Origin: Blasia pusilla | Taxonomy: Eukaryota | DNA: 64,000 nt | Assembly: GCA_050084515.1 (NCBI GenBank) | Contig: CM114271.1 | Location: forward strand, 3,224,001-3,288,000 | Direction: 5' to 3' | Made by a program: the position numbers and the translations under genes | The notes under the pieces: generated by a model | The model's input: only the letters and a program-made list of their open reading frames with translations | Database searches by the model: none | Told to the model about the DNA's origin: nothing | Shown: positions 24,684-61,423 of the stretch, piece after piece | Position numbering within the stretch: the first letter of the stretch is position 1 | Layout: every line of letters starts with the position of its first letter

Positions 24684-25251
24684 AGACACGTCTTTTAGGA
24701 TAGATCTGTCAGATCTAGCAGAGCGCCTTCGTGAGTAGTGGAGGATAGGCTCAATAGGTGGAGGATGACTTACTGAGGCCCCGGGAAACGTGAGAGCAAA
24801 TTTCCCCATTGTTTCGGCTCATTTAGAGCCATATTGAGGAACTTATTATTTTAGGTAAGTACTATTTTTAGTATATGATCAACTTTTATTTTTGGTAAGT
24901 GGCCCTTGACCTCCATCAGGTCAAGAGCCAAGGAGGTGACTTTGGAGCGTAGGTTACCATAGAGAGAGCTTGGGAGAGGGGAGGAGTATACCTAAAGGAG
25001 AGAGAGCTTGAGGGCTCATTCTCTCTTTGTTGAACCTCTTGGCATAAGGCGGCGGAGCTATGGTCCCTTGCCTTGTGAGTGTAACCCAAGCCTCTCATTA
25101 GGAGAGTGGGTTTGGTTTGACATGAGAGAGTGTGCACACCTTTGAGAGTTATGGTGTGAGATGGTGTAGAGAGAGATTGGATCTTACTTTACAAAGAGAG
25201 AATGAGCCCTCAAGCTCTCTCTCCCTGAGGCATACCCCTCCCCTCTCCCAA
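24684..25251 (+). mobile_element. Family-2 A-repeat (element 5' end) inside the copia, ending in a fold-back inversion
   Basis: Matches 63031-63556 on +. 25191-25251 is the near reverse complement of 24970-25030. Confidence 0.8.
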
Positions 25252-27336
25252 CTTGGATGCTCTTCTATCTTGCTTTGGAAAAGGAAATCTAGCTTGTTTT
25301 CCAAATTGGCAAGCAGGAAATACCTCTAACGTAGCATGACTGGCTAATTTAGGGAGTCCTATTACTATATTAGATGATGAAAAAGTATATAATCTTTGAA
25401 GATTGATATGTCCAATTCTTTTATGCCACACATTTAGATTTGTGACTTGTTGGCCGATTTGACCATACATTGCTATTTGAATCTTTGGCACAGAAATATC
25501 TAATTTGAACATTCTGCCAGATCTAGTTCCTTTGGCTATTGTAGTCTGGTCACCCATTGATTCAATGAAACAACCATCTGCGTTAGACTTCACTTGATAA
25601 GCCTGTTCTATTATCTGTGCTATAGATATCAGATTTCTTGCAATAGTAGGAACATAGAGAACATTTCCAAGAGCACAAAGACCATATGATGCTATTGGAA
25701 CTTTACAGGTATGCGAGATATGATGTTGAGTGTCATCTCATGTGAGCACAATTGCAGGATCTTTCACCGGCTCCAAACTATTGAACCATTTAGCTTGTGA
25801 GATCATGTGATTTGATGCATCAAAGTCAATGTACCAATCTGTTGTCAAGTCTTTCTTCACCATTGCTCCCATATGATGAGTCATGACGAAGAGATGCTAT
25901 GTTTGTGAATGTTGTTGTTTTTGGTACTACTCTTGGTAGTGTTGCTCCACATAGTTTTATTGTTGTAAGGATCCTATTCTCATATCTTCCTTCTTCTTGA
26001 AACAAAACTTTGCATATTGACCCTTTATCCCACAGTAATTGCAAGATCCAGAGACCCTTTGTTGCTGACCTCGATCCCAACGATTTCCACCATCACCACC
26101 TTGTGATTGTGTCTGGTACTGGTTCGTAGTTGATTGAGTGACATTATATTGAGTGCCTCTTCCTCCATATGCTTCATATCCACCACGACCACGGAAGTTT
26201 TTGCCATGACCCCTGCCTCTGTTTGATCCATAATCTGCAAATAACGCACTCTCTTGTAGATTAGACGAGCTACCGCTGCCTACTAGGTGCATCTCTTCAC
26301 TGATCAATAGAGGAACTAACTCTTGAAAGGTTGGATATTTCTCTCTCACAGAGATAGAGGTCTCAAAGGACTTGTAATGCTTTGGAAGGCCTTGAAGAGT
26401 GAATAAAATCAGATCATCATATTCTACTGTCACTCCAATGCTATTCAACTAATCAACAATATGTCTGATACTCAAAATATAATCATTGATGCTCTACGAT
26501 CTTTTCCTCACTACGTTTAATTGTTGTTTCAATTGAAGCTTTCTGGCCTTTGTAAATGTCTAGAATAACTTTTCCAATGCATCCCAGGACTCCTTCGGAG
26601 TATCAACATCTTGGATGTGACCAATCATTGGCGAATTGATCGTTATTGCAATGTCGTGGATTACTTGCCTTACACGTTTGTTCCAAGTACGAACATTCAA
26701 GTCTGTTGAGTCACCTTCTAGCTTGGCCTCATCACCTATGACAAGCTCCCATAGTTCTTGACCCATGAGAAATTATTTCATGCAAAACTTCTAGATATTG
26801 TAATTCTGCTTGTCTAGCTTCTCGCCTGTGATTGATGTTGAGGAATACTCCATGATAAACGATTTCACTCACAAAAACATAATTTCAGGCTTTCTACTGC
26901 TCCAATTGAAGCATAGACTACTCTTACACAGAAATTGACCTAAAATTTGCCAAAATTGATCAAATGTAAGAAAGAACTAGTCGAAATTGGCTTGTAGAGA
27001 GCAAAGTACACAACTTTTCTTCACTAATTGCACTTTCCTACACGTCAGAGTGTCAGAATCGAGCAATTTTGGGTGCGTTGGAAAGCTCTCAATGAGCTCT
27101 ATAAGACGTCTAGAACAACCTTTGACATCATTCTAGCCAAAGCGGACCCAGATGGCTGAATCAACCGGGAAAGCCCTAAAAAACGCCTCCAAAGTTTTAT
27201 CACCGTCAAAGCTCCACTTGAAATCTGCACCCACTAAGTTATGAATAAAATTTCCTTCTCCCAAACTGAAATTTTGCCTTCTCTTGCCTCTCTTCTCTAT
27301 TCAAACACCAAGAATTTCAAGTGATGTTCTCCTCCC

Positions 27337-27348: not shown

Positions 27349-27662
27349 TGTGGAAAATTGCTAAACAAGCATAAGTGGTGGAAAACGGCTATCACACACA
27401 CACACACCACCATAGAGAACGAAATTTGTAATGAGATAATGAGTGGATTCTGGTCCTCAACTCAATTATATAGGATATGTACAAGCAACCCTAACCCCAC
27501 ACTTAACCATAGTCTCGAGTTAGACTAGTTATGATTAACTAACCATAGTTAAGATAATCGTGTTTAACTCACTAACCAAGATTAACCTTCCCTACTTCGT
27601 GTGAGTACCAAATGTAATAGTTCAGATGTCTTATGAGCTTGACTATAACTCAATCTTCGATA
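27349..27662 (-). repeat. copia 5' LTR
   Basis: Direct repeat of 24290-24615, followed by the PBS on the minus strand. Confidence 0.9.
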
Positions 27663-30600
27663 ATATATTGTGTGGTACTCGCTCCACCTAAGGATGTCTG
27701 TATCCGGAATGGACAACGCTCCACATGGGCCCTCGTCAAGCCCAAACCTCTGAATGCCGCTTTCCCCAACATGAAGGGGTTGCGCTCCTGAATCCAACCA
27801 GATGCATTGTGGACTAAAAGCTCTATCTCTTGGACTCACCAACTGGAAGACCTCTCCCCGGTTATCCAACAAAATAACACAAGGAGAAGCCATGGCAAGC
27901 TCTATCGCGGGTCTAGTGGGCATCTCCGCCATCCTAGCAATTGCAACCTGCCACGAATGTGACGTGGATGGCCCGAGCATCAGCTCCAAGGGCAAGTCCA
28001 TCACCTCCTCTACAATCACCTTTGAATGTGATGCATGAACTCCAACTCCAAGATCACATAGCGTAGCAGCCAACCGGAAAACCTCGGCGGGGGTACTTTC
28101 CAACGTCATAACATCGAAAGCAGAAAATAAAGGAGCGCGGTACACAATGGTGGACGCCCCCAACAACATACTTGACACATTCCCCTCTTGAGCATCAACA
28201 ATAGGAGTTGTGGCACTCTCTTCTCCCATCGCCAACTCTCCGAGAACTCTTATCAGAACCCGTCGATGGGGTCCTCATTGCCTCGAACAACGTGAAAGAC
28301 TAATGAAGACTGGTCTGTTTCTTGGCTTCCCCCCGCTGTGGATCCAAATCTGCGACTGCTCCACGCGTAACAACTCCAAGGGCCTCCATCTGGGCAACCC
28401 CGCACATCCAACCAGGATCCTCCATATCTATGGCGGCTCCATAAGACATCGATGCCACGGATCCGGCATCGGGTAACCTCAATGCCATAGTAGCAATCTG
28501 CTGCTGTAGCTGATGTATCTGAGCAGCCATCCCAGCCTTACGCTTGGCATCTCCCTCAACGCGTCTAGGTGGGGGAACTTTACCTCCTCCATGAACAACT
28601 CCATCATCCCCTTGGGCGAATCCATCTTCTCGTCTCCCAATGGGACCACCTGGTGCACGGCCTCTAGGCCCACCTAGACCGGCAACTCGCTATGGTGCCC
28701 TCTCTGGCCCTCGATCCAGACGTAACTTATGGTGCAAGCACAAATACTTGGCGTGTGTGTGACCTCTGAAATTAGTCACATTGATAATCTCTTGGTGCAG
28801 CCCCATCTCCTCCTCCATGTTACGGTAACCGACCATGACCCTGACGAAAGCAATGGTGTTGATGATGGGCTCCACCACATGACCAAAACGTAATCGTAGA
28901 CGGTTGCTGCTGAGCCGCATATGAAGGCGCAGGTCTCTGTGGCACGGCCTCCCGATATCCTCCCTTAGCTTGTGGTGTCACAGACCTATCTCGGAATCCA
29001 CGTTGTTGCATTGATGGTGCAGAAAATCGTGACTGCTCTCCTCCGCCATGTTACGCTCAATATTCTCGGCCGTCCTTAAAACATCTCTCAATATAGGGGA
29101 GGTGTTCATAAGAAGTATCCCCTCCTGCACATGTATCCGCAAGGTCCGGTCCAACATCGCGTACCATGACTAGATAGCATGAGCCTCTGTCATCCCCTGA
29201 GTGACGTTAATCAACCGGCGCAAGCGGGTGTAGGCCTCATGCAAACTCTCACCCGGGAGCCTCTGGAAGTCGTGGATGCTCCGCAACTTCTCCGTCCGTA
29301 CCCCCTGGTAGCTCGCCCTCAACTCAGCAAAGAACTCAACCACGAGGTTGAACCTCGGATGAACTCGACTGGACAATGCAACTGCTCCAGTGTGAGTCAC
29401 CCCTCCTACAACATCACTGATGGAGGAACCCTCTCCTAAATCCTCCTCCTTATCAAGAAACGGATCAGTCCATGCCACATAGGGTGGGTCATAGTAGAAT
29501 CGCCATTCCTCAATCTCTTGGGCATATCTGTGGGGGAACTCATGATAATCATCCATGGGTGCCCTCTCTAAATGTTGGAATGTACCGTTCCATGTTGTAA
29601 ACAGGTTGAACTCTCTAGAGTTCCTAGCCCGTTGTGAGTCACACCAACTACTAAAATCCGCAATGAAGTCCTGTAGCTCTATGATGCCTACAGCACCCTA
29701 AGCGGTCATCTACCCCGATCGTCCATCTCGTACGCCCAACTGGTAGGACCACTCAATGTGTGCGGTGGATCACTAGCACACTCTTCTATACTCTCCCCCT
29801 CGTTTGAAGACAACACAAAAGGAGACCGAGGTGGTCTCTCATGTGGAGACTCTGGAAACTTCACACCACTCCGGGCAAACCCTCTAGAGCTACTCTTAGG
29901 TCCACCACCTCGCCTCTCAAAGTCCCAAAAGGACACCGTGATGATCCTCATGCCCCTCTCACACGATCACTTTCAATCTCACGAGTAATCACTCAATCAC
30001 TCAATCCAACAATCGGCTCTCTATCTACACTCTCTCACTTAGACGTGTCTTGTGCGGCAACATGCGGCGTGGTGTGGCAAATCATCGACTGCCCTATCAT
30101 CTCATCGGCAAGACACACCCTCAACTTTGGACATCCCACACATGTCTATGTCCCCTAACCCATACATCAATGATGCTCTCACCATCAGCCCGAAACCCAA
30201 TATCCCCAAATAACTTCCCAATACCCGGAAATCCCTAACGCGTGTAGGGCAAAAGACCAGAATGGGTAATCTGAATGTCTGTGTCGCTCCTCACCAATTG
30301 CAAAACCTCGACCCCAACTCGGTCGTGAAAACAACTCCTCCAAATAGTATGTCGTACTCCCCTGGTACTGACGGTGCTCAAATCTCCTCAATGTGCGGTG
30401 CGGGTCCAGTGGTACGGTACGGCAGTGGCGGCACGGAACGGCACGGCACTCGAGAATGGGGTGCGGCATTGAGTGGCATACCCTCCCCAACAACAAAACA
30501 CACACTCTGCTCCCAAGTGATGGTGCAGCTCCGCGATCAAAAAGTGCGGTGCGGCCACGAGCGGCACCGCGCAGCAATTGGCGACGTGTTGCGGCTACGA

Positions 30601-33600: not shown

Positions 33601-34093
33601 CCTCCGCAATGAGCACTCCATCCACTCCCTGAGTCTCCAACGTGATATGAACGGTATTAATAAAATTCTAAATCTGTTATCCAAAATAGAACATATGGCT
33701 TCAGGATTTTGACCTCGGGGTTAACTAACCCAAGGATGAATAGGCCCAAGGAAAAATAATCTTGATCACCATATGGAATTTCTACATATGAATGTAACTT
33801 GAAGTCTTTTTTTTTATATATAAATGGTTCTAAACTAATGCATTGGGTCTAACAAATATTTCCTTGAAGGCTTAATGGGATTTCATAGGTGGTCTTGCAA
33901 ACTCTGTAATTCACAAAAAACTGATTTTAAAAGATTAGGTCGCTCTTTCCTTCTTCATCTTTCCTAATCATGGATTGCTTAAAGATTAGAAGAACAATTA
34001 AATGGCTTTATAAAAGTACATTTGACTTGCTCATGATTGTACACACAGTTTCTCTAAGTCCAAAAACTTAAGTATATGAGAATAGTAGCTGGC

Positions 34094-34461
34094 TGTCATG
34101 ACCATACGAATTATGTCGTAGAGTATAGCGTGCTAATAGAAGCCATACCTTATGTAGGGCCATAGTGTCTAGGTAGAGATGCGGTTTCATACATAGGGTT
34201 GGGGGTTACTCAGTTGAGGGTGACTTTTCCAATAGGGCCCGCTCTTAGGTTGGAGGATATAGTGTGGAGTGCACTCAAAGAACAGTTAGTTCTTTGAGTT
34301 GAGCCTGTTGCGTTGGAAGTTAGCCTTGGTAGTGAGTAGAGCTCTTGGCTATGGTGGTTCTCGTAAGCTTCGACCTGGATTCTCCCATCGTGGAGTGGGT
34401 TTGGCTCGACAGGATGTGATTCTATACGTGTTTTATGACAGTAGGTCTTTCATGGATTTCA
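34094..34461 (+). repeat. Split repeat A1 (368 bp)
   Basis: Colinear with 42986-43353; about 17 mismatches by manual count. Confidence 0.95.
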
Positions 34462-35020
34462 CTCAAAGAACTAGAGTAGATCGATGGTAGCTTCGATTGT
34501 GGATCAGTAGGATATGGTTAGGGCTGATTGTGTACTCAGACGTGGATGTTCGTGGCTTGTGGCCTATGTTGGAGTTGGGAATCTGGTGCATGGTTGGTTG
34601 GTAAAGAATTGCCTTGCTAGAGCTTTCCAACGCGCTTTAGATCACTGGATTTCGTTAAGGGAGTTGGAAGTTGGAGAGCTTGGAGTGAGGAAGCTCTGTT
34701 GAAGTTCATCCAGATCGGGTGAGAGGTTCTTGTTGCTACTTGTATTGTGATCTCATATGAAGCTATATGCTTGAGTGTTTGGAGCATTGTGTATTTCTGC
34801 GTGCATGAATCTGGGTGGAAGCGCTGTCGGATTTGCGATTCCGGAGGTGTATGGACAACAAGTTTGTCTGATTTTAAGCTCGAAGTACAGAGCTCGGTTG
34901 TAGCTGATTTTTTGTGGAGAGATAGCTATGGTGGTCAATTGAATTCTGGTTGAAATAGATTCAATTTTGGTTGAGAATTTGTGGAGTAATTTCTGATCAA
35001 AATTTTGCGGACTAGCTCAA

Positions 35021-35080
35021 GGTCTGGCTATGGTGGACAGCAGATCGGAGGGTCTGGCTATGGTGGACAGCAGATCAGAG
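35021..35080 (+). repeat. 2 x 30 bp tandem repeat in the element's 5' leader
   Basis: GGTCTGGCTATGGTGGACAGCAGATC(G/A)GAG twice. Confidence 0.9.
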
Positions 35081-35807
35081 AGGCTTCGAGGCATCTCGTG
35101 GTAGCTCAGTGCAAGTGGGCGTGAGAGGCGGAGTAAGGATCAAGGATTAAGCAAGAAAGCTTGCTTGCTTGGGCATGAGGCAGGTTTTGCAGGATTTGTG
35201 ATTTGAGTGTTGCATAACTGGTCACCCATCTTTGGGCTATTCTGCCTGGAAGACGCTTAACCGCTGAGTTCTTAACTATGCTAGTGTACACACTGGTGTA
35301 GCTCATTTGGTGTTGTTCGGAGATGTGTTAGGCGCTTTATGCATCTCAGGTTTTTGGTTGATGGATCTCTAGCGCATAGTACGGTGTAGCCTCTCCATGC
35401 AGTTGATATTTTCAGGTGCTGCGAGTCCGACTAGCACGTCATCGACCCGCGGCGGAGTAGTTATTGCGTTAGAATTTTGTAGTGGGTTCTGTGGATTTAA
35501 GGGGCGCCACGTTTGGTGGATTGTGTTACCTTGATTTCCATTTGTGATTAGAGGGTTTTCGTTGGACTTCCTGTGTTTGGATCCCCTCCATCCTTGCTTC
35601 TTGCTTGCGCGCCCATTGTTAGGGTTGACGTTGATTTCCATAGTAGTGTTACTCCTGTGTGCTACCGGTAGTGAGGCTGGAGTGATGACCAGTAGACCGT
35701 GGGAGCTTTCTTGTGGTGATGACACGTTAGGTTGCCTACACCCATAGCTAATAGAGCTAGAATAGTACAGCGACATCGACGTCACTTGGCTACTTAGTGG
35801 TGGTAAT

Positions 35808-38300
35808 TTGGTGGTGGTGCGGCATCGGCGTTGGTCATCACGGAGCTGTCTGGTGGCCTGGTTGGGCCTGGTTGGGGACCGTGATGCGGACAGTGGTGGT
35901 TTTACACGGAGTGGATTGAGGTATCTACTACCTTTTCCACTTCTGACGGTTGATGAAGAGAAGGACGAGGGTGTTCCAAACACCGAGTCTTCTACGTTGG
36001 TATCGAGTGTTGCAGCTCCATTGATTTGGGACATGGACGAGATATATGGGGCCATGAAGGGCCCACGATGATACTCGGATGCAGTGGACACCATTGAGTT
36101 GGAGGACTTCATGCAGGAGTTTGATACGTGATGTGATATGCAGCTGTTGCGGAACGCCACGTTGTTTACACCCTTCTTGGCTAGGAAGGGGTTGTTTCAA
36201 CACTTGGAGGGACCACCCATGGACGATTACCATGAGTTTAGGAAGGACCATGTTGTTGAGATTGAGGCGTGGAGACAATATTGGTCTCCAGGCTATGTGT
36301 CTATCACCCATGGTGGTATTGGTAGTAGTGCTCCTACTATGCCAGCCAGCCCGACGTTGAGTGGTACGAGTACGAGCAGGAGTGGGAGTACCAGTGGAGA
36401 TACCGGTGGGGGTACTAGTGGAGGTACTAGTGCCCCACCATCGTTCAGCCTGCTTGTAGAGTTCTTCAAGAGGTTGAAGAAGAACTATCAGGGAGTGAAG
36501 ACAGAGAAGTTGAGGAGTCTTCAAGAATTTGAGCGAAAGATTGGTAAGAGTCTTCGTGAGGCATACACTTGTATGCGTCGCTTGATTTCACTTACCCAAG
36601 GTGTGACTAAAGCTCAAGAAGTCAAGTTTTGGTATGGGATCTTGGACAGAGAGTTGCGCCGCAGGGTATATGATCTACTCTTATGAGTGATGATTCACCC
36701 ACATTGACCCATGTGTTTGCTCTATCTGAGAAGATTGAGCTTAATATGGTAAAGGGGAGAGTGGTGACATCCGCATTCAGTAGGGATACAACTACTACTT
36801 CTCGTGTTCAGCAGCCCATCTCACATTCTCGTAGTAGTGGTGGTGGTAGTAGTAGTGGGAGTCGTGGGGGTTACACACGACCTCAGTCAGGTCCTAGAGG
36901 GACACTTGCGTAGAGACCATTGCCTTCATTTGCTGCCCCGAGCAAGGACACTCATGTTGGACATGTGGAGCTGATCATGTTAGGAGTTTTTGTCCCCAAG
37001 AGGATGGGAGACGGACTTTGGAGGATGGGCCTCAATCGGCCCCAACTCAGAGTGATCATTGCGGGAGACCAGGTCATCCTCGAGAGCGTTGCTTTGATCT
37101 TCATCCAGAGTTGAGATCAGGCCGCAGCCGTGGTGGAGTAGCTCCGAGAGGCCGAGGTGGTAGAGGTGGTAGAGGTGGACCATTGGTTGGAGAGCCTACG
37201 GTGGCTATCCCTACCACTACGACAGAGTCAGCTATGGCTGCCAGGATTGAGCGATTGGGAGCGGTTGGCTTCTATTGTTGGTATCCAAAGATAGATCAGG
37301 TTCGGGAGCAGCGGCTTCCACCTCTTATGGAGGGATGATCTCTCTTATATGGCGAGTGCAAAGACCGAGGTTGAGGCATCGCAGCGATTTGAGAGGAGCC
37401 ACTCGAGCGTTAGAGCCACCTGGTGCTACTGTGGAGTTGGACCCACAGAGGGGTGAGGTTGGGAGGCAGGCTAGGCTTCCCCAATCATACTTGTTGTCTG
37501 AGGTGCTTAGGACTCCATCCATGGTTCCTACGCAGCCTATTGAGCCGACAGTGGGGACCGAGGCATCTACATCGCGTGTAGTAGACACGGATGCAAAGAT
37601 CAATGCAAAGATTGTGCGGATGGCAACTTTAGTGTTGGGATCCCCATTGTTTTCGGCCACGAAGCTGATGGCTTGAAGAGTTGACTTAGCTCGTGTATTT
37701 CAGCTAGCAGCCACGTTGTGTGAACGTGGGGATGTTACTGCTATACGTGCTGAGGTGGATGAGGGTGTTGCGGTGGAGCGACCCTCTATGTCAGGTGTAG
37801 CATTGAGTACTAGTGCTACTTGGCAGGCAACAGCGGCGAAGATGGATGCATTACCAGCCCGGCCAGCCATTGATCGTGAGAGGCTTACACCTGGTGTATG
37901 TATGTTGGACAACCAGAGTGGGATATTCCGATTGGTGAGTCCTACAGGACATGTGTATAGACCAGATAGAGTCTTGTTAGACTCTAGTGCCTAACCTTTG
38001 ATGTTGGGAAAGGCGGCATGTATTGGTTTGGGTATTCGGAGGTCAGAGCTTGAGCCTTGCCCATTCCAGATTCAAACATCACTTGGAGGAGCCAATGATA
38101 TGTCTCAATTCATGACACGGGAGAAGTTTTCTGTACAGTTGAGACCAGATCATGTGACTGATAGCTCCCGATTGGGAGTACCTACAGTGGTCACATCAGC
38201 CGAGTCATATGATGTACTAGTTTGAGGAGCATTATTGAACCCGATGGGTTTTCAGATGGATTACTGGACTGAGACAACGTCTTATAGACCTGGTAGGCAA
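35808..38300 (+). pseudogene. gag (two knuckle remnants) and aspartic protease of family 1, interrupted
   Basis: Gag-like ORF 36138-36686, knuckles CWTCGADH....C (~36955) and xDHCGRPGHPRERC (~37050), protease VLLDSSA*PLMLG (~37970-38010) and SYDVLV*G. Confidence 0.8.
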
Positions 38301-38699
38301 TCCGGGGATGGACGTATGAGCCAAGTTTATGTGAGATTTGTTTATGGGGCTCGACCAGGAGGGTCTTCCCCAACAGCGTTAGCATCTGTGGCTGGTTTTA
38401 GTGGAGTAGTCACTTGGCCAGGACAATTTTTGGAGGGTAATGTTTCCGCTATGGATTCTCTTGTGCATGAGGAGGTAGAGGAGGTCCCTATTTTTGTAGC
38501 AGTGGCATCCTCATCATTGGATGTGCCACTTTGGAGTTCAGGCGGTGCACTACGGCAGGAGGCTGATCGCCTAGTGCAGGAGGCTTGGTGTGAGGTTGTT
38601 ATATCTCACGAGGAAGAGGAGGCCCCACGGCGGACTCCTACTTCTGGTCCAGTTGGGTTATCTCCTTTGGATACTACACCCATTGTATGGCAGTATCCG

Positions 38700-39640
38700 C
38701 CGAAGGGCATTTGTGTGTTAGATCTCTTTGGTGGGATTAGCATTGGTTTGGCTCTAGTGTTGCAGGCCGGTATTCCTGTGCGGAGATACGTGTATGTGGA
38801 GCAAGATGAGACGGCCCAGAGAGTCTCATCCCGACATATTGGTCAGTTGATGCGGAGATATCCTGAGTTGTTGCCGCCATCAGCTATTCGTGGGTACTAG
38901 CGTGGTTTGCCGTCACACATTGCATTGTTGCGGGCGCAAGACCTTGAGAGGGTCGGTCCTGTGGATTTGGTGATTGCTGGATGGCCATGTCAGGGTCATA
39001 TACGTGTTGGTTGTGGTAAGGGATTACACGACCCTAGGTCTTGATTGTTTTGGGAGATGTTACGGGTGTTACAACATCTTCAGGTTCATCAGGCACGTGT
39101 TCCAACTTACATTCTGGGTGACACTCGGACCCAGATGATGGTGAGTGTTCATGAGGTGCGGTCTTGGATTGGACCAGAGGTGTTGTTGGATGCAGTGCGA
39201 GTTGGCTCACGTGCACATCATCCACGCTTGTGGTGGACAAACTTGTTTCCTAGGGAGGTTCTACGTCGAGCATATGATGTAGTGCAGCGGGATCCTTGCC
39301 TTACAGTGGATAGTATCTTGGATAGTGGGCGACTTTCTCAGGTGGTGAGGGTTATTGATCGGTCACCCATGGCAATGGTGAACCGTGTGGGCCAGCCTAG
39401 GATGGCACTACCCACATTTGTGAGTTTTCCCTCGTCACATGCCTACAAGGAAGGTGGTCTCGGGCTTGTATGGGATTCTCATGTGCGACAGTTGGTGGAG
39501 CCTAACGCTGATGAGAGAGAGCGTGCGATGGGATTTGCTACTGGTGAGACAGTGGTTGCTTCCATTTCTGAAGCTTCACGACGTCATGTGTTGGGTCAGG
39601 CCATGGACCTGAATTGTTTGACTTGGATTTTGAGTCTTGG
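38700..39640 (+). pseudogene. C5 DNA-cytosine methyltransferase domain inside pol
   Basis: One frame read through stops at 38898 and 39042: motif I VLDLFGGI (38715), motif II YVYVE, motif IV DLVIAGWPCQG (PCQ at 38985-38993), motif V DPRS*LFWE, motif VIII LDAVRVGSRAHHPRLWWTN, motif IX ERERAMGF, motif X LGQAMD (39591). Motif VI (ENV) is absent. Confidence 0.9.
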
Positions 39641-39980
39641 TATGGACGAGCAGCGTCGACTTTGGACTATGTCCATGGGTCTTCCACCCCTTGTGATGAG
39701 CTCGATGGCTACCGGGACGGTAGAGGCATCGGCTGGGGGCAAGGATAGTAGTATTTTGCATCCTTGGAGTAAATGGGATGTAATGGCTAGGCATGTGGAG
39801 TTGGTTGCTCATGCTGGTGGAGGAGTTATTTGCTCAGATGATGGTGTAGCTAAGGGTGTACCATCTTGTGAGGGGATTGCGTAGTAGCCAATGGCATCGT
39901 CCTCTCCCTCTAGTGTGCCAGTGGAGGAGACTTAGGAGCCATTACTTGGGCCCAAGCTTACGGGAGGTGAGAAACGACGC

Positions 39981-41000
39981 TTGACACAATTCCTACGTGC
40001 TTATAGGAGTTGTTTTGCCTTGAGCATGAAGGAGTTGGGTGCTTTGGTTGGACCCGGTATACGGATTGATTTGGCTAGTGATATGCCAATCTTTCGTCGT
40101 CCCTACCGATATAGTGATATGGAGAGGGACCTGATTCAGACTAGGACGTTGGACCTTTTGGAGGCTGGATTAGTGGAGTTGTCGCATGGAGAATATGCAC
40201 CTACCGAGTTTCAGAGAGTGATGGACAGCATCCTAGCAGGGTTGGATTTTGTTTGGTGTTACATTGATGATATCTTGGTGTTCAGTAACATGGTGGAGGA
40301 GCATCATATACATTTGCAGATTGTGTTCGAGCGGTTGAAAGCTCATGGTCTACGTTTGCATCCAGGAAAGTGTAAGTTCTTCCATGAGGATGTTGAGTAC
40401 TTGGGTCATGTGATCTATCCAGGTGGTTTGGGAGTTCAGCAAGCAAAGGTGGAGGCTATTGCACTTATTCCGCGTCTGGTAGATGTGAGTAGAGTTTGGG
40501 AATTCATGGGATTGGATTACTACTATCGGAGGTATGTGAAGGGATTTAGTGCTATGGCAAAGCCTTTGAACCAATTGCTAAAATCATATCAAGAGTGGCA
40601 CTCGGGAGATGATCAGGAGAGAGATTTTGTGGAGCTCAAGGCCTAGTTAGTGGCGGCGCCTATCTTGAGGAGACCTATCAAAGGGCGCCCATTTCAGTTA
40701 TACACCGATTGGAGTAGGTTGGGACTTGGAGCGGTGTTGACACAACATGATGATGAGCACATGGAGTTTGTGGTGGCCTATGCAAGTCGTTCGATTAATA
40801 CAACGGAGTTGTGCTACAGTTCATATGAGGGAGAGTGCTTGGCAGTAGTGTGGGTTGTGGCACACTTTAGGTGTTACTTGTTTGGCGCACAGTTTACCCT
40901 TGTTACTGATCACCAGCCGCTCAAGTGGTTGATGGAGTTTGACAAGCTTACAGGGAAGCTTGCACGGTGGGCTCTTATCTTACAGGAGTATGACTTCTAG
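39981..41000 (+). pseudogene. Reverse transcriptase (internally deleted) and RNase H
   Basis: RRPYRYS, PTEFQRVMD, CYIDDILVFS, KCKF, YLGH; RNase H LYTDWS, YSSYEGECLAVVW, TDHQPLKWL. Confidence 0.93.
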
Positions 41001-42704
41001 GTGATACATAGACCTGGAGTTGCCAACCTTGATGTTGATGGGTTGAGTAGGAACCCATGTACTAGCCAAGAGGATGCAACTGGGGCTAGATGGCATGGCG
41101 AGGTTGATGAGGAGATGGTGCCAGGTTGGCATGCATCCGCCTTTTTATGTTGGTTAGGGGTGGACTCTAGTATGGAGGACCACATGACATCTTACTCTAG
41201 TCAGAGGGTAGATGGCCAGCCTTCAGATCCTAAGGTTGGAGATGGTGGTACGGATCAGCGTGATATTCATGATGATGCATTGGTGTTGGAGTTCCTACGG
41301 ACCAGTAGGGTGCCAGGCATAGTGAGTGCCAAGGAGCGAGACCGTGTTCTTCAACATGCTAAGAGGTATCGATTGGAGGGAACACATATTCTCCGTGTGT
41401 GGGAGGATGGTAGAGTACGAGTAGTGCCGCATTTGGCTCGGAGAGAGCGCATTGTGCGACATGCCTATGAGGAGTTAGGACATTTTGGGGTAAAGCGTAC
41501 GTATAGCTTACTCCTTGGTCAGTATTGGTGGCGTGGCATGCATACTCAGGTGCAGCACTTGGTGTCATGTTGTATGGTTTGTGACCGGGTGAGGGCATCA
41601 TTCAATGCTCCTACACCACAGTTACACCCCTTGCCTATTATGGGGTTGGGTTACCGTTGGAGTGTGGACTTTGCGGGACCGTTACCGTTGAATGTACGAC
41701 ATCATCGATATGTGTTGGTGATGGTGGAGCACTTCTCCAAGTGGATTGAGTCGGTAGCATTACCTGACAAGGCAAGTGAGGAAACGGCGTATGCCTTTCT
41801 TGATAGAGTGCTTAGTCATTTTGGTGCACCAGCTGAAGTGCTGACCAACCAGGATACAGAGTTTCAGGGTGAGTTTCAGGTCTTGTGTGACAAGGCGTTG
41901 ATTGATCATCGGACCACGTCTCGAGATCATCCAGAGGCGGATGGTTCGGTTGAGCGTGTGTTTCAGAAGGTGAAGAGGGCATTGTGCAAGTATGGCCTAC
42001 AGAAGGGGCATCTTGGAGATTGGGATATTCAGTTGCCATGGTTAGCCATGGGGTATAGGTTCAGTCGCCAAGCATCCTTGGCTTTCTTCTCACCTTATTT
42101 TCTCTTATACGGCCGAGATCCAGACTTGCCAGAGGAAATTCGTCAAGAGTCTAGTGAGGTGGTGAACCTTGATAACCCAGAGATGTGGATGAGAGTGTGT
42201 TCTCAGCGGGCAGAGCTCTTTCAGAGAGTTATGCCAACAGCCTTTGAGAACCTTGCCATGGCTCAACACAGGGAAACGTTGCGGTATGCAACCATTCGGG
42301 GTGGAGGTTATCGACCATCGATTCGTAGGTTCCATGTGGGGGACTATGTCTATGTGCAGAAGATTGCATCGACAACGTTGGATGTGACGGCAGGTCGCAC
42401 TATTTTACGAGTGCGCGAGGTGTTAGCTTATGGAGTTCTCATGTTGGAGGGTTGTGATGGAGTTTTTTGGAAGGACCATGTGCGTAATTGTACGCCATAT
42501 CATCTTCCAAATGTGGATGGTACTCTTGAACCAAGCTTAGCCATGATACGTGCTAGCTTGAGGTGCATGTTGTGTGGATCTACTGGTAACGTAGCCCGTA
42601 TGTTGGTGTGTGATCGGTGTTCTAGGGATTGGCACATGATGTGTTTGACTCCACGTATGGATGTTGTTCCTACTGGAAGGTGGGTTTGTCCTCGAAGTAC
42701 TTAG
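41001..42704 (+). pseudogene. DDE integrase with a C-terminal PHD finger
   Basis: HHCC-type GHFG...CMVC. Core SVDFAGP / VLTNQ (D>N) / SVER. C-terminus CMLC...MLVCDRC...WHMMCLTP....P.GRWVCPR at 42564-42701; the last Cys is lost. Confidence 0.92.
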
Positions 42705-42876
42705 GAGAGGTAGATGACTTGATCTTTGCATGATATGGATTACATATAGGCAACTAACGATGGGGCAACCTAGCACCCGACCTTCTGATTCATGCACCCA
42801 AGAAGGTGTATAGCATGTAGTAGATGTATAGGGCTACCTGGGAGTTAAAGGGACCTAACCGCCAGTTAGAGGCGCA

Positions 42877-42983
42877 AGTTGTGGTACACTTGTGTTTGTG
42901 GATGCTCTCGTCTATGTTATGTATGTATGTGAGTATGGTATGTCAGCGATGTATGTTGTATGACGATGTGGATTCGCACGATA
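42877..42983 (+). repeat. Split repeat B1 (107 bp)
   Basis: Colinear with 43353-43459. Confidence 0.95.
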
Positions 42984-42985
42984 GC

Positions 42986-43353
42986 TTTCATGACCATACG
43001 GATTATGTCGTAGAGTATAGAGTGCTAGTAGAGGCCATACCTAATGTAGGGCCATAGTGGCTAGGAAGAGATGCGGTTTCATACATAGGGTTGGGGGTTA
43101 CTCACTTGAGGGTGACTTTTCCAATAGGGCCCGCTCTTAGGTTGGAGGATATAGTGTGGAGTGCACTCAAAGAACAGTTAGTTCTTTGAGTTGAGCCTGT
43201 TGCGTTGGGAGTTAGCCTTGGTAGTGAGTAGAGCTCTTGGCTATGGTGGTTCCCGCAAGTTTCGACCTGGATTCTCCCATTGTGGAGTGGGTTTGGCTCG
43301 ATTGCATGTGATTCTATACGTGTTTTATGACAGTAGGTCTTTCATGGATTTCA
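42986..43353 (+). repeat. Split repeat A2
   Basis: Copy of 34094-34461. Confidence 0.95.
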
Positions 43354-43459
43354 GTTGTGGTACACTTTTATTTGTGGATGCTCTCGTCTATGTTATGTAT
43401 GTATGTGAGTATGGTATGTTATCGATGTATGTTGTATGACGATGTGGATTCGCACGACA
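43353..43459 (+). repeat. Split repeat B2 (element 3' end)
   Basis: Copy of 42877-42983; ends CGCACGACA. Confidence 0.95.
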
Positions 43460-55398: not shown

Positions 55399-58300
55399 TC
55401 ATGATGGCAATTTCCTGCACATCAAATAAAATAATAGTAAGTGAGTTACATGGCAAAGTAAAGCATCAAAGATTACATAACAATTTACTAAAACCTCATG
55501 AAAAAAATAACCATTCTTAATCACATTCACCCAGAGCATTCGACATCAGCTTCCCAATCAAACAACCATGTGTGTGATTGATTCCCCTAACAGTGTAGTA
55601 ATGAGACAGTGAGACCAATACATCACATTGACCATTTCCCAGGAAGATAGAAAGCCCTCACCTGTCTTGATGGTTTTCAGCAGCAATTTCACTTGGTCCT
55701 TGAATGGAGTTTAAACCGACAAAACCATGAACTCCGGCCAACTTCAAAAGAGCACGTCTAAGCTCAGCTGCTCGTGTCACCCTCATGTTCTTCTCCTCTG
55801 CATTGTTCCTAACGAACTCCGCATCATCCATTGAATTAAGAAGAACCACTACAGCTGATGAACTGAATCTCCGCACTCCATTATTAGTATCCTCACCATC
55901 CTCAACTCCTTTCCTTTGCCTTTCCTTTAGGCTGCCTGAGTTAAGGTTTTGAAGAGAAGTCAACAGCTGGGAGTGGTGAGATGACATCCAGCTTGCCAGC
56001 ACCACCGCTGCAAATCTTCCGAATGCAGGCGGGAGAAAGAGCATGATATTTACAAGTTGAGAGGTAGGTGCATGGTATCTAAGGAGCAGCAAAAGGCCTG
56101 ACATCCCCTCAGAGTTGACTTGCGGATTCAGGACAGTGGAACATATCTTCAGAACCTGCATAACAACTGAGAGAGGCGCGGCTTGCAGCTCAGCTACAAG
56201 CAGTCTCCAGAAAATCTGCTGCTCTATAAACTCCCACTTAAGTGAGTTCTTTATAAATCTTGTCAGCACTTCCTGCTGATCTCCCACAATAGAAAATTCA
56301 CCGAGCAACAACCTAAACTCAAATGTGGATAGATCTTGCGGGTCCATGCTAGAAACCAATAACTGAAAAATCTTGTCCTTGCCGACGGACAAATTTGGGA
56401 GGTATCTGAAGACTGATGGGAGAATTCTTAGGAACCTTTTGGTATTCCATACTAGACATGTTTCTAAATCAGACAATAATTCTACATCCACGTTCTCAGC
56501 TTCTAGGTCGCTTGTTTCAGTTTTCAATAACCCCTCTATTTTGCTATTGTGCAGTCCTTGGTTTTGATGCGACCCATTGTTGTCTCCGTGTACTGTCACC
56601 TGCCCTTTACATACGAGGTTCAAAAACTCTTCATAAATCTTGAATGCATCAGATACTGTTCCGCGAATCTTTGCATGTGTATCTCCTCCTGTCTGTAGCT
56701 CTCTGGACCTGTTCCCTTTCCTGGTTAATGCTACTGAATTTCCACTGCCATGTGCCTTTCCAACAACTCCTGTGAGACCATTTCTTCTGTGATCCCTACC
56801 ACTCTCTCCAGATCTCTCTGTAAATTCTCCCTCTTCATCTCCGTCTCCATTCATGCTTGGGTCGTAATAGTCTTCCTCATTCTTGCTGTTCACTGCTGTT
56901 TCAGAATCCTGTACTCCTCCCGGAGCACTTGCACTTATGGACCTAGCACGTAGGCCTCTGGATGACATTGGTTCCATATCCTCTGCCAACCTGGAGACAT
57001 GACATAGAAGCCGGGCTCCCACCGCTAGTCCCTCCCTGTCCCAGCAGAGAAGCAATTGATGCAGCAGCGGTCTGCTCCGGCAATTAGCCACATAAAATCG
57101 AAGCACAGCTGCAGTCAATGAGAGTGTCTCATCGCCTTCTGGCCGGTCAGATGGGAGTGTTTGCAGAGGGCCAAAAAGCCCATACCCCCCTTTCTTTATC
57201 ATCGCAGTGATCTGGCTTGCCAATTTGGTCAATGTGAGGGATGCAGAATCTCCCGAGGAATTCACTGTTCCGCTTGGTGCCAATTCAGAGTTTGACTCAC
57301 TTTTTATCGAGTCGTTGTCTTTGCAAAGCTTATCCACGAACATTTGATCTGGAGCCGACATGACCAACCCCAAAAGCTTTTCCAGGACACTTACAGCAGC
57401 TTCTTGCGACCTACTCAAGGATTCAGCAAGCCTTTCAAAGTTCTGTTGAATTTCAAGTTGCAGGCTCTCTGCAGCATTCAACCTCCTCCGCTTCCTGTTC
57501 ATACCATCAGAGTCACCAGGTTTGGAATCTTCCATGCTGGGACCCGTTACCAGATCCAGGCTTTGTCCTGAATCACTATTTACACCACCTCCACTGTGCT
57601 CTCGACCTGGAGATGTTGCAGAGCCCAGAGCAAACATACCCTTCATGACTGATCCCCCCGTCTGTTGTTGTATGTGGTCATATGATGTTTCTAGTTGAAA
57701 ATGTTCGGGCCTCATCTGCTTGAAACCTTCCCCGGATTCACTCTTACAGTGAGCAGCAAAGTAGAAGTGGAGTTTATCTCTAAGCCACGAGGCAACTAGA
57801 CCAGAATCCGTAAGAGCATGCAAGGATCTAACCACACCCTTACCCACCAAGATATCGACAGAGGATGTTACTCCTTTCTGAATCAAGTCTTTTCTGACCG
57901 GATCATAGTGTTCGATTAGAAGAAATAGAAACTCGAGGAGGGAGTGTGTCATGTCCACATATTTAGGAATCGAATGTACCATCAGCAAAATGCCCGGTTC
58001 GATATTCATGATATTGTCAGTTTTACTCATGAAAAATAGCCAGTCGTAAAACAGAGCAAGTTTTGCGTTAGCCTCTACATGACTGCTCTTGCAGCACTTC
58101 AACAGCCACCCCACCACGGCCCACCGCGTAACTATGTCCGACTGAAGAATCTGATTCGATGGATGGTGCACGCAGCAGATGAAACGGATTAGGTCACATA
58201 CGAGAGTCTCGCTCTCTGGTGATGACAGAAACCGTTGTGCAAACCATGTTTGATAACGCCGCTGACTCCCCATTCTCACATGCGTGAGCATAAATCGTAT

Positions 58301-59146
58301 CTGATTCTCCATTTCAGGGGTAACCCGGGATATTAAATAGCGAGGCGGTGTCCGGACCACGTAAAGTTGGGCGATGTCAGCAAAAGCAGGAGCTTTGAAG
58401 GCGGCGGGATTACTCAACAAATCTCTCCAGATTGATTCAAATTCGGGGATGAACGCGACGTCCTGGAGAAGCCGAACTAAATCCCTTCCAATCATAAGAC
58501 AATCCTGGAATCTCTCTCTCAAAATCTGTACGCAAAAGGCCGTCTCATTTTGCTTGAGATCATTGAGATTTGGACCTTTCGCCATTGTGTGGTCGGGTAG
58601 GAGACGAAGATATGTGTAGAGAGCCGTGGTGAACAACGGTGGACTGCCACTAACCCAGGTCCAACTGCTTTTCATGATCTGCAAGAGCTCCGCAGCGAGC
58701 CACACATTTCCAGAGCTCAAATCACCACCCGCCACTTGCCTTAATAATGACAGACACAGGTTTTCTACGTCCGCGGCACTGAGGTTGATCAGCTGCTTCA
58801 GCAACCATAAAATCTGCGAACGACTCTGCTCCAATAACTTCGGATATGACTCATTCACCAACCGCATAAGAATGGAAACGAATGAGGCATATCCATCAGT
58901 AGTAATGGCTGTGAGGTGAGTGATGTGGGAGGAGGCCGCAGAAGCGTTTAGAAGAATACCACAGAGAAGAGCTTGAGTAAGCTGTGCATGCTGAGCAGTG
59001 GAAAGAGTAGAAAGGTGATAGGGAGGGGTGAGCTGACTTTGAAAAGTCGCATAAGTGCGCAAGAGCATTTCTTCAAGTTCATCGGCAGCCTCATACTGGC
59101 CGCCTCTGTGCATCAGTTTCGGAGAGGCCATACCGAAGCCTGCCAT
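55399..59146 (-). CDS. INTS3: Integrator complex subunit 3 (SOSS-A)
   Basis: 1162-aa ORF with QRRYQTWF..PESETLVCDLIRFICCVHHPSNQIL..RWAVVGWLL..ANAKLALFYDWLFF..NIMNIEPG. A likely terminal intron at 55415-55661 would give ...QDRKLPS*; otherwise the ORF ends at 55658. Confidence 0.93.
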
Positions 59147-61423
59147 GGCTTTCTTCTATGGCTAGTTCTTACACGCTACAGGTCTACCAGCATTGCCGAC
59201 ATTACTTGAGACCGCCGTGCATCTTTCATCCATTATACATAGAGCTCGAATAATTCCCCCAGAAGGACCGCTCAAATGTTCTTCCCACATTGCCTGTGTC
59301 CATACCTAGTTGCCATGATTTCAAGGTTTGAGGTCTTCGTGGATAAAGCATTGTACTCGTTCCCTCACAATCTCCTTGTGACATTGCTGTAAAGACACTG
59401 GAACCCTAAGTCATCAGATTCTATTCGTGGAAAAAACCTTTACCACAAACCCTTGCCGACATAAACCCCTCCGATTGACATCAATCGATTCAAATGCCTT
59501 GACCTCCAAATTGAAAGATGAATGACGAATTGCAATAAACACCAAAACTTAACCTTGATACGAAGAGCCTAATAGTAAAACCTTACGCCAGATGTCAAAA
59601 ATTCGAGAAAACGACCAAAGCAGACATCCCTCTCACTCGACCCCACCACCATTCTCACAAGAAACATGACCTCCCAAGCACGATAACCACACGCAACCGC
59701 AGACAATTCCTCACCCCAGCCCTCCACTCTCCGCCAAAACTGCCCCCACCACCCGAAAATCTTCTCCCCCAACCCGCAAGAAGCCCCCTCCCTCACCTTT
59801 CCCAAAGCACCAACGGACCTCGTAAAGATCAAGACAACAACAACAGCGCGCTCCTGCTCCTCCTGCCGCTCCGCTCCAATTCCATTCCTCCTCCTCCTCA
59901 TTGCTCCACCCGCGACGCGATCAGCCCCTCCGATCCTCCTCTGCTTCCCCTTCCATAGCCGATCCCACGCACACCAACTCCTCGCATCTCCCCTCCTCCT
60001 CCTCCTCCTCACACCAGAGCGCTCGCTCTTCCCCTTCCGTCCCTCCTCCAGCTCCGGGACGGGGACCTTACATTTTGCGAAGTGATCCAGCCACGGGCGT
60101 TTTATATGCGCTGCGGAGCCCATGGCGCGTCGTCCCTTATCCTCGCTCTACCTAGGCATTAGGTAGAGCCCCGGCCCGAAACCCCTCCCGAATAAGACAA
60201 AAGGGCGCGGCCCGGACTGTATGTAAGCGGGGGAGAGAGAGAGAGACGGAGGCAGAGGGAGTATCCCGCGCGCCGGAGTTTTGTCGATTGCGAGACGTGT
60301 CGTCACGCTACTGCGTCCGAAAAATAATAACGAAACGCCCCGCGAGTTCTGAAGCCTTGTGCGTGTTCCTGTAGCGCGCGTACTTAAGTGGCATTTAAAT
60401 AAATGGTGCTTCTTTTTCAGTTTTCTATTATGTGGTATTATCACTTTCTTGTGACCTCTCTTTCGGAGATTAAATATAGTACTCATTTTATTGAGTGTTA
60501 TTATAACCACGGGGGATTCCTGCAAGAACACCTCTTGGTTCCAAGTCTACATCATAAATTAAATTATTTTACTTTATAGGCATGTGCCCTTTTCTTTCAG
60601 ATTTATATTTCATGGTGCATGTAGTGAGTAATTTGTTTGGTTTAGTCTCTCTACCATTGAGTAGAATTTCTATGTCTTCTTTTCTTGTTGAGACATTTAA
60701 TGTGTTAAAACCAGTTTGCCGCCTTTTAGAGAGGGGTGGGAGAAAAAATGCTTAATAGGCACGTGTAGAGGAAACAAAAAAAACTTGTTGGGGTCGTAAC
60801 AAGAATCATCGTCTCAAGCACGACCACGGAAGCGGAGGCTCCTACTCCATTGACAAAACAAAATGACCACTTACTTCCCAACCTCCAATCAACGAATTAA
60901 TGCACGAGGAGGGAGGATCAAAGCTTTCTCTATTGTGAACTGAAAGGGAAGTTACGAAACTGAAATGGACTGAAGTGAGTGCTCGGGAATGGAACGCGTT
61001 GAACGATTCGAGCTCTTTACAATGACGCTCCCAAGGCAGTCTAAGACGGCTTTACGTGTCATGATCTAGGGCTACGGATTTAGGAGAAGACAACGAAGGC
61101 CCAAGGTTGCTATTAAGGTCACACGAATCTAATTAATATTAATCACACGAACCTAAGGTCATATGAATCTTATTATGCGGATCTCTATGCAAAAATAACA
61201 CAAACTAAAGTAACTTGCCCAATCAGGAAACAAAACAAAGCATACATGTAGGGGCCGTAATGATTTCATGAATCTTTTTATTTGTAATTACTACTCACAT
61301 TTGGTAAGAGGACAAGACGAGTCAAAAGTATCTCATGAGGGGAAGGAATCTAGAATTGCAAGGTGGAGAGTAAGGGTTGAAGTAATCATCTTAATCATGA
61401 TTTGTGTTCTATTTATGCACTAA

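Follow-up and report, generated by a model that had tools for sequence, protein, structure and literature searches.

A decayed Ty3/gypsy-type retrotransposon of the liverwort Blasia pusilla with a DNMT3-like methyltransferase domain

Retrotransposons that bear an enzyme normally used to silence them present a puzzle, and the role of such an enzyme has been tested only in dinoflagellate elements. The puzzle is raised again by a stretch of 64,000 nt from the liverwort Blasia pusilla (contig CM114271.1; the whole of this stretch is called the window here), in which a first-pass annotation made from the letters alone had described a C5 cytosine methyltransferase in frame within the pol region of a retroelement. 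The question is what this DNA methyltransferase (DNMT) domain is, whether it belongs to the element that carries it, and what it could have done there. The window element is almost certainly a dead copy of the Gypsy-DNMT3 kind. The fuller explanation, in which this decayed copy goes back to an ancestor with two open reading frames (ORFs), a DNMT kept by selection and a leaky UAG stop codon, is considered highly probable.

The element is of the Ty3/gypsy type and spans positions 34092-43457 on the plus strand (9.4 kb). A single plus-strand frame, whose codon starts are divisible by 3, codes in succession for a protease-like region, the DNMT, reverse transcriptase (RT), RNase H, integrase and a PHD finger, as determined from a stop-to-stop ORF list, a single-frame translation and Pfam profiles. 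This translation bears out the annotation in placing the DNMT in the same frame as the protease upstream and the RT downstream. The hallmark of DIRS elements found no support, with rve and Integrase_H2C2 matches present and no Phage_integrase (tyrosine recombinase) match in the Pfam scan. The ends of the element are marked by TG and CA, and its repeats follow the order A1-coding-B1-A2-B2, with no B repeat upstream of A1 in the window. A point against the proposed explanation is that no clean target-site duplication was found, the 5-nt flanks being CTGGC and TGGGC with 3 of 5 positions equal. No convincing tRNA-complementary stretch was found as a primer-binding site, and similarity to the related loci ends about 12 nt past A1.

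Six of the methyltransferase motifs named in the annotation lie where it had put them and in linear order: motif I (38715-38750, VLDLFGGISIGL), motif II (38787-38807), motif IV (38973-38999, IAGWPCQGH, with the catalytic Pro-Cys kept), motif VIII (39204-39245), motif IX (39498-39536, EPNADERERAMGF) and motif X (39588-39614). Motif IV is indeed enclosed by two in-frame stops, a TAG at 38898-38900 and a TGA at 39042-39044. On a 553-residue piece the Pfam profile DNA_methylase (PF00145) scored 25.5 bits, above its cut-off of 22 (E 1.1e-5), and the match covers only profile positions 61-102. A 6-codon in-frame gap between 39113 and 39114, seen by comparison with all 12 aligned relatives, deletes motif VI (ENV). 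The window DNMT thus has neither an open frame nor the motif VI that is needed for catalysis.

Decay is not confined to the DNMT. The frame from 37677 to 42704 contains ten stops, one of which is the ORF1 stop of the family (see below) and the last the terminator of ORF2, leaving eight that are premature. The gag homology (36033-37257 overall) is broken into three tblastn pieces, 36033-36683, 36674-36937 and 36940-37257, each in another frame, with a zinc knuckle of the form CX2CX3HX4C at 36955-36993. The active-site stretch of the protease, from 37974, reads LLDSSA followed by a stop where relatives have LLDSGA. About 100 RT codons are absent at around 40197: the RVT_1 match covers profile positions 126-205, compared with 7-205 in ORF2 of an intact relative (L027), residues 1440-1524 of the related protein P0026 have no counterpart in the window, and an alignment of 1373 columns is represented by 1065 nt. 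Because of the two stops in the DNMT, the loss of motif VI and the damage to gag, protease and RT, the window copy cannot methylate. It is a dead, non-autonomous fossil.

By sequence and predicted fold, the domain of the family is DNMT3-like. When the window domain was searched with phmmer against chains of the Protein Data Bank (PDB), DNMT3A came first (4.5e-11) and was collinear over motifs I-VIII, followed by tobacco DRM at 3e-5 and bacterial enzymes at 4e-3 or worse. With motifs IX and X lying downstream of the collinear part, this upholds the annotation's statement that the linear motif order is not that of the permuted DRM type. A profile built from 13 family sequences gave DNMT3A/B/C at 6e-15 (57 bits), then M.HaeIII at 1e-5, HhaI at 3e-5 and DRM at 6e-5; DNMT1 was absent from its matches at E<=0.01. 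Among the sequence and fold matches, DNMT2 (6fdf) reached only E 0.21. The DNMT is better preserved in ORF1 of L027, where DNA_methylase scores 51.1 bits. An AlphaFold model of the L027 DNMT part, made from a 45-sequence alignment, had a mean predicted local distance difference test score (pLDDT) of 81.7, with values above 90 over residues ~30-360. In a Foldseek search of the PDB with this predicted structure, the first 50 ranks were all catalytic domains of DNMT3A/B/C (E 6e-18, target template modelling score 0.80-0.83), at about 21-23% identity to the human DNMT3 enzymes in the structural alignment. The ESM Atlas returned generic C5-methylase clusters only (Streptophyta, phage), and no Pfam match to PWWP or ADD was found in the window polyprotein or its relatives.

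Relatives are numerous. A word-indexed search with the DNMT part gave 28 longer proteins, of which 12 are hypothetical proteins of Marchantia polymorpha, one is from Sphagnum fallax and the rest are metagenome proteins (34-49% identity). Most of the Marchantia matches have 60-73% identity over 88-100% of the DNMT query, and two others (P0025 and P0030) have 69-72% identity over only 54% and 22% of it. In an exhaustive HMMER search, 2169 representative proteins passed E<=1e-3 and 219 passed <=1e-30, and most of the long ones among these 219 clusters have RT or integrase beside the DNMT. Taken with the Pfam and phmmer results, this puts the likeness to methyltransferases far above chance. No protein named Klebsormidium was present among the 28 matches or among a set of 113 matches. 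At the DNA level, a metagenome scan found 63 loci, the best 25 of which have 74-79% nucleotide identity to the element (about 77% full-length), up to its full length including the repeats. These best 25 are Sphagnum-like, and the C-terminal letters of an ORF in one of them (L001, 14857-15282) are those of the C-terminus of the S. fallax protein.

Two architectures were distinguished when domains were located by BLAST in 177 proteins. In type 1, found in the window, Marchantia, Sphagnum, P0026 and P0049, the order is protease-DNMT-RT-RNase H-integrase-PHD. In type 2, the commoner of the two, it is RT-RNase H-DNMT-integrase-PHD, and the named members are the green algae Monoraphidium neglectum and Cymbomonas tetramitiformis. 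A FastTree phylogeny of 190 DNMT domains and that of the window has one branch, with support 96, that parts type 1 from type 2, as judged without 37 domains of unknown architecture. On a DNMT tree the window, a Marchantia clade (support 100) and a Sphagnum-like clade (support 95) form a three-way split whose order is not resolved, nested in a clade of support 99. The PHD finger stands at the equivalent place in P0026, P0027, P0028 and ORF2 of L027. Among the algal-type relatives of type 2, which include P0027, P0043, P0081 and P0106, some have long extra C-terminal regions or, in P0028, a G-patch, and P0239 has a chromodomain in addition to the PHD according to precomputed Pfam assignments. 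The order gag-protease-DNMT-RT recurs in Marchantia, Sphagnum and 42 metagenome copies, which agrees with the annotation's view of the DNMT as a stably integrated cargo domain. Its further idea that the domain is cut out of the polyprotein is conjectural.

The phrase "within pol" in the annotation was right in one respect and wrong in another. The frame is shared with RT; an uninterrupted pol is not found, the DNMT being the C-terminal part of an ORF1 that ends at a conserved stop. The Marchantia proteins P0003 and P0004 and the DNMT frame of the window all end at one alignment position, about 90 residues past motif X. Of 37 Sphagnum-like loci, 36 have a stop at the matching column (25 TAG and 11 TAA; the remaining locus has GAG), with CAA CCC ATG coming next. 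In the intact L027, an ORF1 of 1369 residues (gag, Asp_protease_2 and DNA_methylase) is followed directly and in frame by an ORF2 of 1047 residues with RVT_1, RNase H, integrase and PHD. The stop is found at that position in L027, L039, L044 and L006 as well, and its contexts, TAG CAG TTA in L027 and L044, TAG CAA TCA in L039 and TAG CAA CCA in L006, all conform to UAG CARYYA. The amino acid of the second codon after the stop varies (L, S or P) and the YYA pattern is constant, which points to constraint at the RNA level rather than at the protein level. Both ORFs share one frame in every copy examined. The first Met of ORF2 in L027 is residue 117, within conserved RT sequence, and conservation between L027, L039 and L044 already covers the 116 residues before it.

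Gammaretroviruses make gag-pol by read-through of a stop codon. The motif UAG CARYYA is the type I leaky-stop signal of tobamoviruses, as that signal is described in PMC5382211, and the likeness extends to where the in-frame UAG stands, after a product made in abundance and before the polymerase. It is reasonably likely, judging by these sequence features, that Pol is expressed by reading through the UAG. Several points weigh against this. The CAA CCC of the Sphagnum-like subfamily differs from the tobamovirus signal in not being a perfect YYA, and 11 of its 36 stops (37 loci examined) are TAA, a poorer fit to type I; in the window copy the motif is disrupted, with another stop directly after the family stop; P0026 and P0049 have one continuous ORF; and the case for read-through is made from sequence. 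The competing explanation is that the stop is not read through, and that ORF2 is reached by splicing, re-initiation or a subgenomic RNA, or else that the two-ORF form is defective and depends on single-ORF relatives. This is favored by the TAA stops and the single-ORF relatives just named, and by an ATG found 6 nt past the stop in the window and Sphagnum-like copies. However, this ATG is not kept in L027, L039 and L006, whereas CARYYA is, and in L027 the 116 residues ahead of the first ORF2 Met are nevertheless conserved as protein. The common frame of the two ORFs in every copy also speaks against it, and we regard this explanation as unlikely.

The selection acting on the DNMT was estimated as the ratio of nonsynonymous to synonymous substitutions (Ka/Ks), using Nei-Gojobori medians over codon alignments of the window copy with the metagenome loci. 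The DNMT ratio was 0.22 (42 pairs, median Ks 0.74), in line with 0.22 for the protease, 0.19 for the gag N-terminus, 0.15 for RT-RNase H and 0.17 for the integrase. Shifted-frame controls on the same DNMT alignment gave 0.75 and 1.31. In all 12 aligned relatives FGG, PCQ, ENV, the motif VIII arginines and RERAMGF are kept, and among 43 aligned DNA copies PCQ is found in 37 and ENV in 36. Purifying selection on the DNMT has matched that on gag and protease in strength. Neither a missing profile match nor a loss of ENV from all copies together with a lack of purifying selection, which the annotation had named as grounds for giving up its claim, was found, and the ratio across copies that it proposed as a check came out well below the shifted-frame values.

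Some caveats of this comparison count the other way. Because every pair behind the ratios includes the window copy and several loci duplicate one another, the comparisons are not independent. Among the Sphagnum-like loci themselves (Ks ~0.2) the ratios were 0.54 for the DNMT, 0.66 for the protease and 0.36 for the RT, and the excess of the DNMT over the RT fits neutral decay and also weaker constraint. Higher ratios among these loci are expected if they diverged in large part by decaying after insertion. Stops or frameshifts interrupt the DNMT in every one of the 43 aligned copies of the window and Sphagnum-like subfamily, so the case for present-day activity rests on the intact ORF1 models of Marchantia and on contigs such as L027. 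Taken together, there is a good likelihood that the family's DNMT works, or did so until recently, as a DNMT3-type enzyme in the service of the element.

A different role for the domain would be to act on RNA, either the genomic RNA or the primer tRNA in the manner of DNMT2, or to serve as a non-catalytic module like DNMT3L. The Klebsormidium Gypsy DNMT, in the only published test for this lineage, gave no methylation of DNA in yeast, a result that its authors called inconclusive (PMC5890265); this fits such a role and tells against a DNA methyltransferase of the family. The available text of the same paper raises RNA methylation for another retrotransposon DNMT, and placement in the ORF of Gag and protease would put the domain beside packaged RNA. 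A DNMT3L-like scaffold would not be expected to keep the catalytic motifs, which are retained in 12 of 12 intact relatives, and a DNMT2-like activity agrees poorly with matches that are DNMT3A/B/C by both sequence and fold, with DNMT2 at the E value given above. A role of this kind is therefore held to be very unlikely. Finally, the idea that the DNMT stems from a host DNMT3 gene or pseudogene, in which a retrotransposon landed or of which it took up a part once, and is a passenger of the window copy alone with no role for the element, could appeal to the existence of DNMT3 as a host gene family in plants and to the broken state of this copy, as a passenger might be; it is contradicted by the recurrent gene order, including that of an intact two-ORF element, by a Ka/Ks sustained over such a Ks, by the many clusters with RT or integrase beside the DNMT and by the lack of a PWWP or ADD match, and was rejected as having next to no chance of being correct.

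With the DNMT thus best explained as a selected part of the element, a scheme for the active ancestor can be proposed. It would have had two ORFs in one frame, ORF1 coding for Gag with zinc knuckles, an aspartic protease and a DNMT3-type methyltransferase, and ORF2 for RT, RNase H, a DDE integrase and a PHD finger. Pol would most likely have been made as a rarer read-through fusion across the conserved UAG, so that the output of the DNMT would equal that of Gag and protease. The enzyme may then methylate cytosines of the new complementary DNA (cDNA) of the element itself or of DNA at the insertion site, by analogy with SymbioDIRS-Dnmt3 as reported in the available text of PMC5890265. That the substrate is the element's own cDNA is a tentative suggestion, somewhat short of an even chance, which is based on this analogy and on co-translation with Gag. 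A broader picture can be drawn in which one old Ty3/gypsy lineage, extending from green algae to bryophytes, is characterized by a DNMT3 and an integrase PHD; in bryophytes the DNMT would have moved in front of a leaky UAG, so that it is packaged like Gag and methylates cDNA in the particle, and the PHD would pick the landing site. Taken as a whole, we consider this picture rather unlikely. If it is true, the DNA would reach chromatin already methylated, and the lineage might account for some de novo methylation in Marchantia polymorpha whose source has gone unrecognised.

The high novelty implied by the annotation is not warranted, since DNMT3s borne by retrotransposons were first described in 2018 by de Mendoza et al. 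(PMC5890265), in elements of DIRS type in Symbiodinium and of Gypsy type in the charophyte Klebsormidium nitens. Later texts, in the parts available, refer to "streptophytes (Gypsy-DNMT3)" (bioRxiv 10.64898/2026.05.21.726589) and to some DNMT3s "embedded within retrotransposon structures" (PMC12344493). The Gypsy-DNMT3 kind is already known, and the liverwort host adds a member to it. According to the published description, KnitGypsy-Dnmt3 shares with the window element a Gypsy-type long terminal repeat (LTR) structure, an intronless and non-rearranged DNMT3-like domain, DIRS-like A-coding-B-A-B repeats (legends of Fig. 1e and 4c in PMC5890265, where they are given for SymbioDIRS-Dnmt3 as well) and a streptophyte host. 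The A...B-A-B layout is also seen in L014, L024 and L038, and a 5' A without a preceding B in 12 of 12 loci that show a 5' A. No terminal repeats were found within the 9.3-kb contig of L027, which probably ends at the repeats. The present family differs from KnitGypsy-Dnmt3 in its liverwort host, with sister families in Marchantia and Sphagnum. Purifying selection with Ka/Ks < 0.2 was reported for the KnitGypsy-Dnmt3 DNMT (PMC5890265), compared with the 0.22 obtained here and the 0.54 among decayed Sphagnum-like copies. It should be noted, as a reservation about this placement, that the likeness to the Klebsormidium elements is by published description and not by sequence. An ORF1 stop with CARYYA and an integrase PHD were not found in the available description of KnitGypsy-Dnmt3 (PMC5890265).

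SymbioDIRS-Dnmt3, which carried out de novo CG methylation in yeast according to the available text of PMC5890265, has in common with the window element a DNMT3-type domain in a retroelement polyprotein and the repeat layout. Unlike SymbioDIRS-Dnmt3 with its tyrosine recombinase, the window element has a DDE integrase, H2C2 domain, RNase H and gypsy-type protease. The cellular enzymes DNMT3A, DNMT3B and DNMT3C and plant DNMT3 are the best relatives by sequence and fold and have the linear order I-IV-VI-VIII-IX-X, whereas the element domain stands without PWWP or ADD, without introns and fused behind Gag and protease. PWWP and ADD are likewise not described for the published retrotransposon DNMT3s in the available text of PMC5890265. 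Chromoviruses are Ty3/gypsy elements with a chromodomain after the integrase. They resemble the present family in having a chromatin reader at the integrase C-terminus and differ in that this reader is a PHD here, not a chromodomain. No paper in which Marchantia, Sphagnum or another bryophyte is named as a host came up in a literature search, although the supplementary species tables of PMC5890265 may list such copies. In that search the placement of the DNMT in ORF1 before a leaky-type stop, the integrase PHD, the two DNMT positions and the breadth from green algae to bryophytes were not found described before.

The family is transcribed. In the dataset with the best DNA match, the contigs have a very high summed depth over the element, which shows the family to be highly repetitive there. 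From three RNA runs labelled as the same species, 3736, 3495 and 4010 reads matched at 90-99% identity, and in nearly all of these the first mate lies on the minus strand, as expected of sense RNA in most stranded libraries. Sister copies are the main source of these transcripts, since reads at least 99% alike number only 10-12 per run. Motif VI is present in RNA reads that break at the DNMT gap of the window, and the missing RT segment in reads at 40195 and 40199. In RNA reads of all three runs (16, 29 and 46), 41223 is connected to 42232 by 9 other letters, so that some transcribed sister copies have a 1-kb internal deletion or replacement in the integrase region.

The features of the element are listed in Table 1.

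Table 1. Positions of the parts of the Ty3/gypsy-type element in the window
Feature	Position	Strand	Remarks
Terminal repeat A1	34092..34461	+	370 nt; 5' end of the element, begins TG; 95.4% identity to 42984-43353
Gag region, decayed	36033..37338	+	Homology to Marchantia P0003 scattered across three frames
Aspartic-protease-like region	37872..38225	+	Pfam Asp_protease_2 at the homologous place in P0026 and L027 ORF1
DNMT3-type C5 cytosine methyltransferase domain, pseudogene	38700..39640	+	Motifs I, II, IV, VIII, IX, X
Family-conserved ORF1 stop, TAG at 39882	39882..39887	+	Second TAG next, then CCA
Reverse transcriptase, truncated	39936..40646	+	Pfam RVT_1 59 bits, profile positions 126-205 only
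RNase H	40608..40991	+	Pfam RT_RNaseH 117 bits, RT_RNaseH_2 97 bits
Integrase: H2C2 zinc domain and DDE core	41439..41933	+	Pfam Integrase_H2C2 49.7 bits, rve 43.8 bits
PHD finger, C-terminus of integrase ORF	42564..42695	+	Pfam PHD 33.3 bits (cut-off 24)
Repeat B1	42877..42981	+	105 nt; 96.2% identity to 43353-43457
Repeat A2	42984..43353	+	95.4% identity to A1
Repeat B2	43353..43457	+	3' end of the element; CA at terminus

The leader between A1 and the gag homology is unusually long, about 1.57 kb (34462-36032), and includes a stretch of 30 nt duplicated in tandem at 35021-35080. On the family's coding strand G strongly exceeds C and T exceeds A, with a GC skew of +0.25 and an AT skew of -0.11 to -0.14 in the window element, L001 and L024, and the observed/expected ratio of CpG in these three is 0.5-0.6. 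The same skew is seen in weaker form in the intact L027 (GC skew 0.08-0.15), which makes it a family trait and not a result of decay of the window copy. Elsewhere in the window, the minus strand at 27626-29697 has a related gypsy gag and protease fragment with 36-50% identity to Marchantia P0003. No DNMT, RT or integrase match follows the gag and protease in this fragment, which is the sole other related piece within the window. A Copia-type fragment with Pfam gag_pre-integrs (38.8 bits) and Pol_BBD lies at 25210-25737, also on the minus strand.

A host gene is present on the minus strand at 55658-59155, where an uninterrupted and apparently intronless ORF of 1165 residues codes for Integrator subunit 3 (INTS3), with Pfam matches to Ints3_N (555 bits) and HEAT_Ints3_C (85 bits). 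Marchantia polymorpha gives the highest identity (72%), followed by Riccia and Calypogeia (66-67%), Sphagnum (52-53%) and Ceratodon (50%). The best named relatives are thus liverworts, in keeping with a liverwort host that is not M. polymorpha. The DNMT of the window has 68-77% amino-acid identity to Sphagnum-like copies, compared with the 52-53% of the host INTS3 to Sphagnum. The Ks of the element is 0.6-0.9 in this comparison. The contrast in identity could come from slow evolution, old parallel lineages or horizontal transfer, and the tree does not decide between them.

The window copy itself is without function, and the meaning of the finding lies with its family. The placement of the DNMT in the ORF of Gag and protease before a leaky-type stop, the integrase PHD and the two DNMT positions that are split on the tree provide handles on how the enzyme is used. 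Naturally intact ORFs exist, so that a repaired consensus, which the annotation had envisaged for expression, is unnecessary. Gypsy-DNMT3 elements are abundant in bryophytes and transcribed in a liverwort, and since intact ORF1 models are present in Marchantia polymorpha, the use of the DNMT to the element is testable in a tractable plant.

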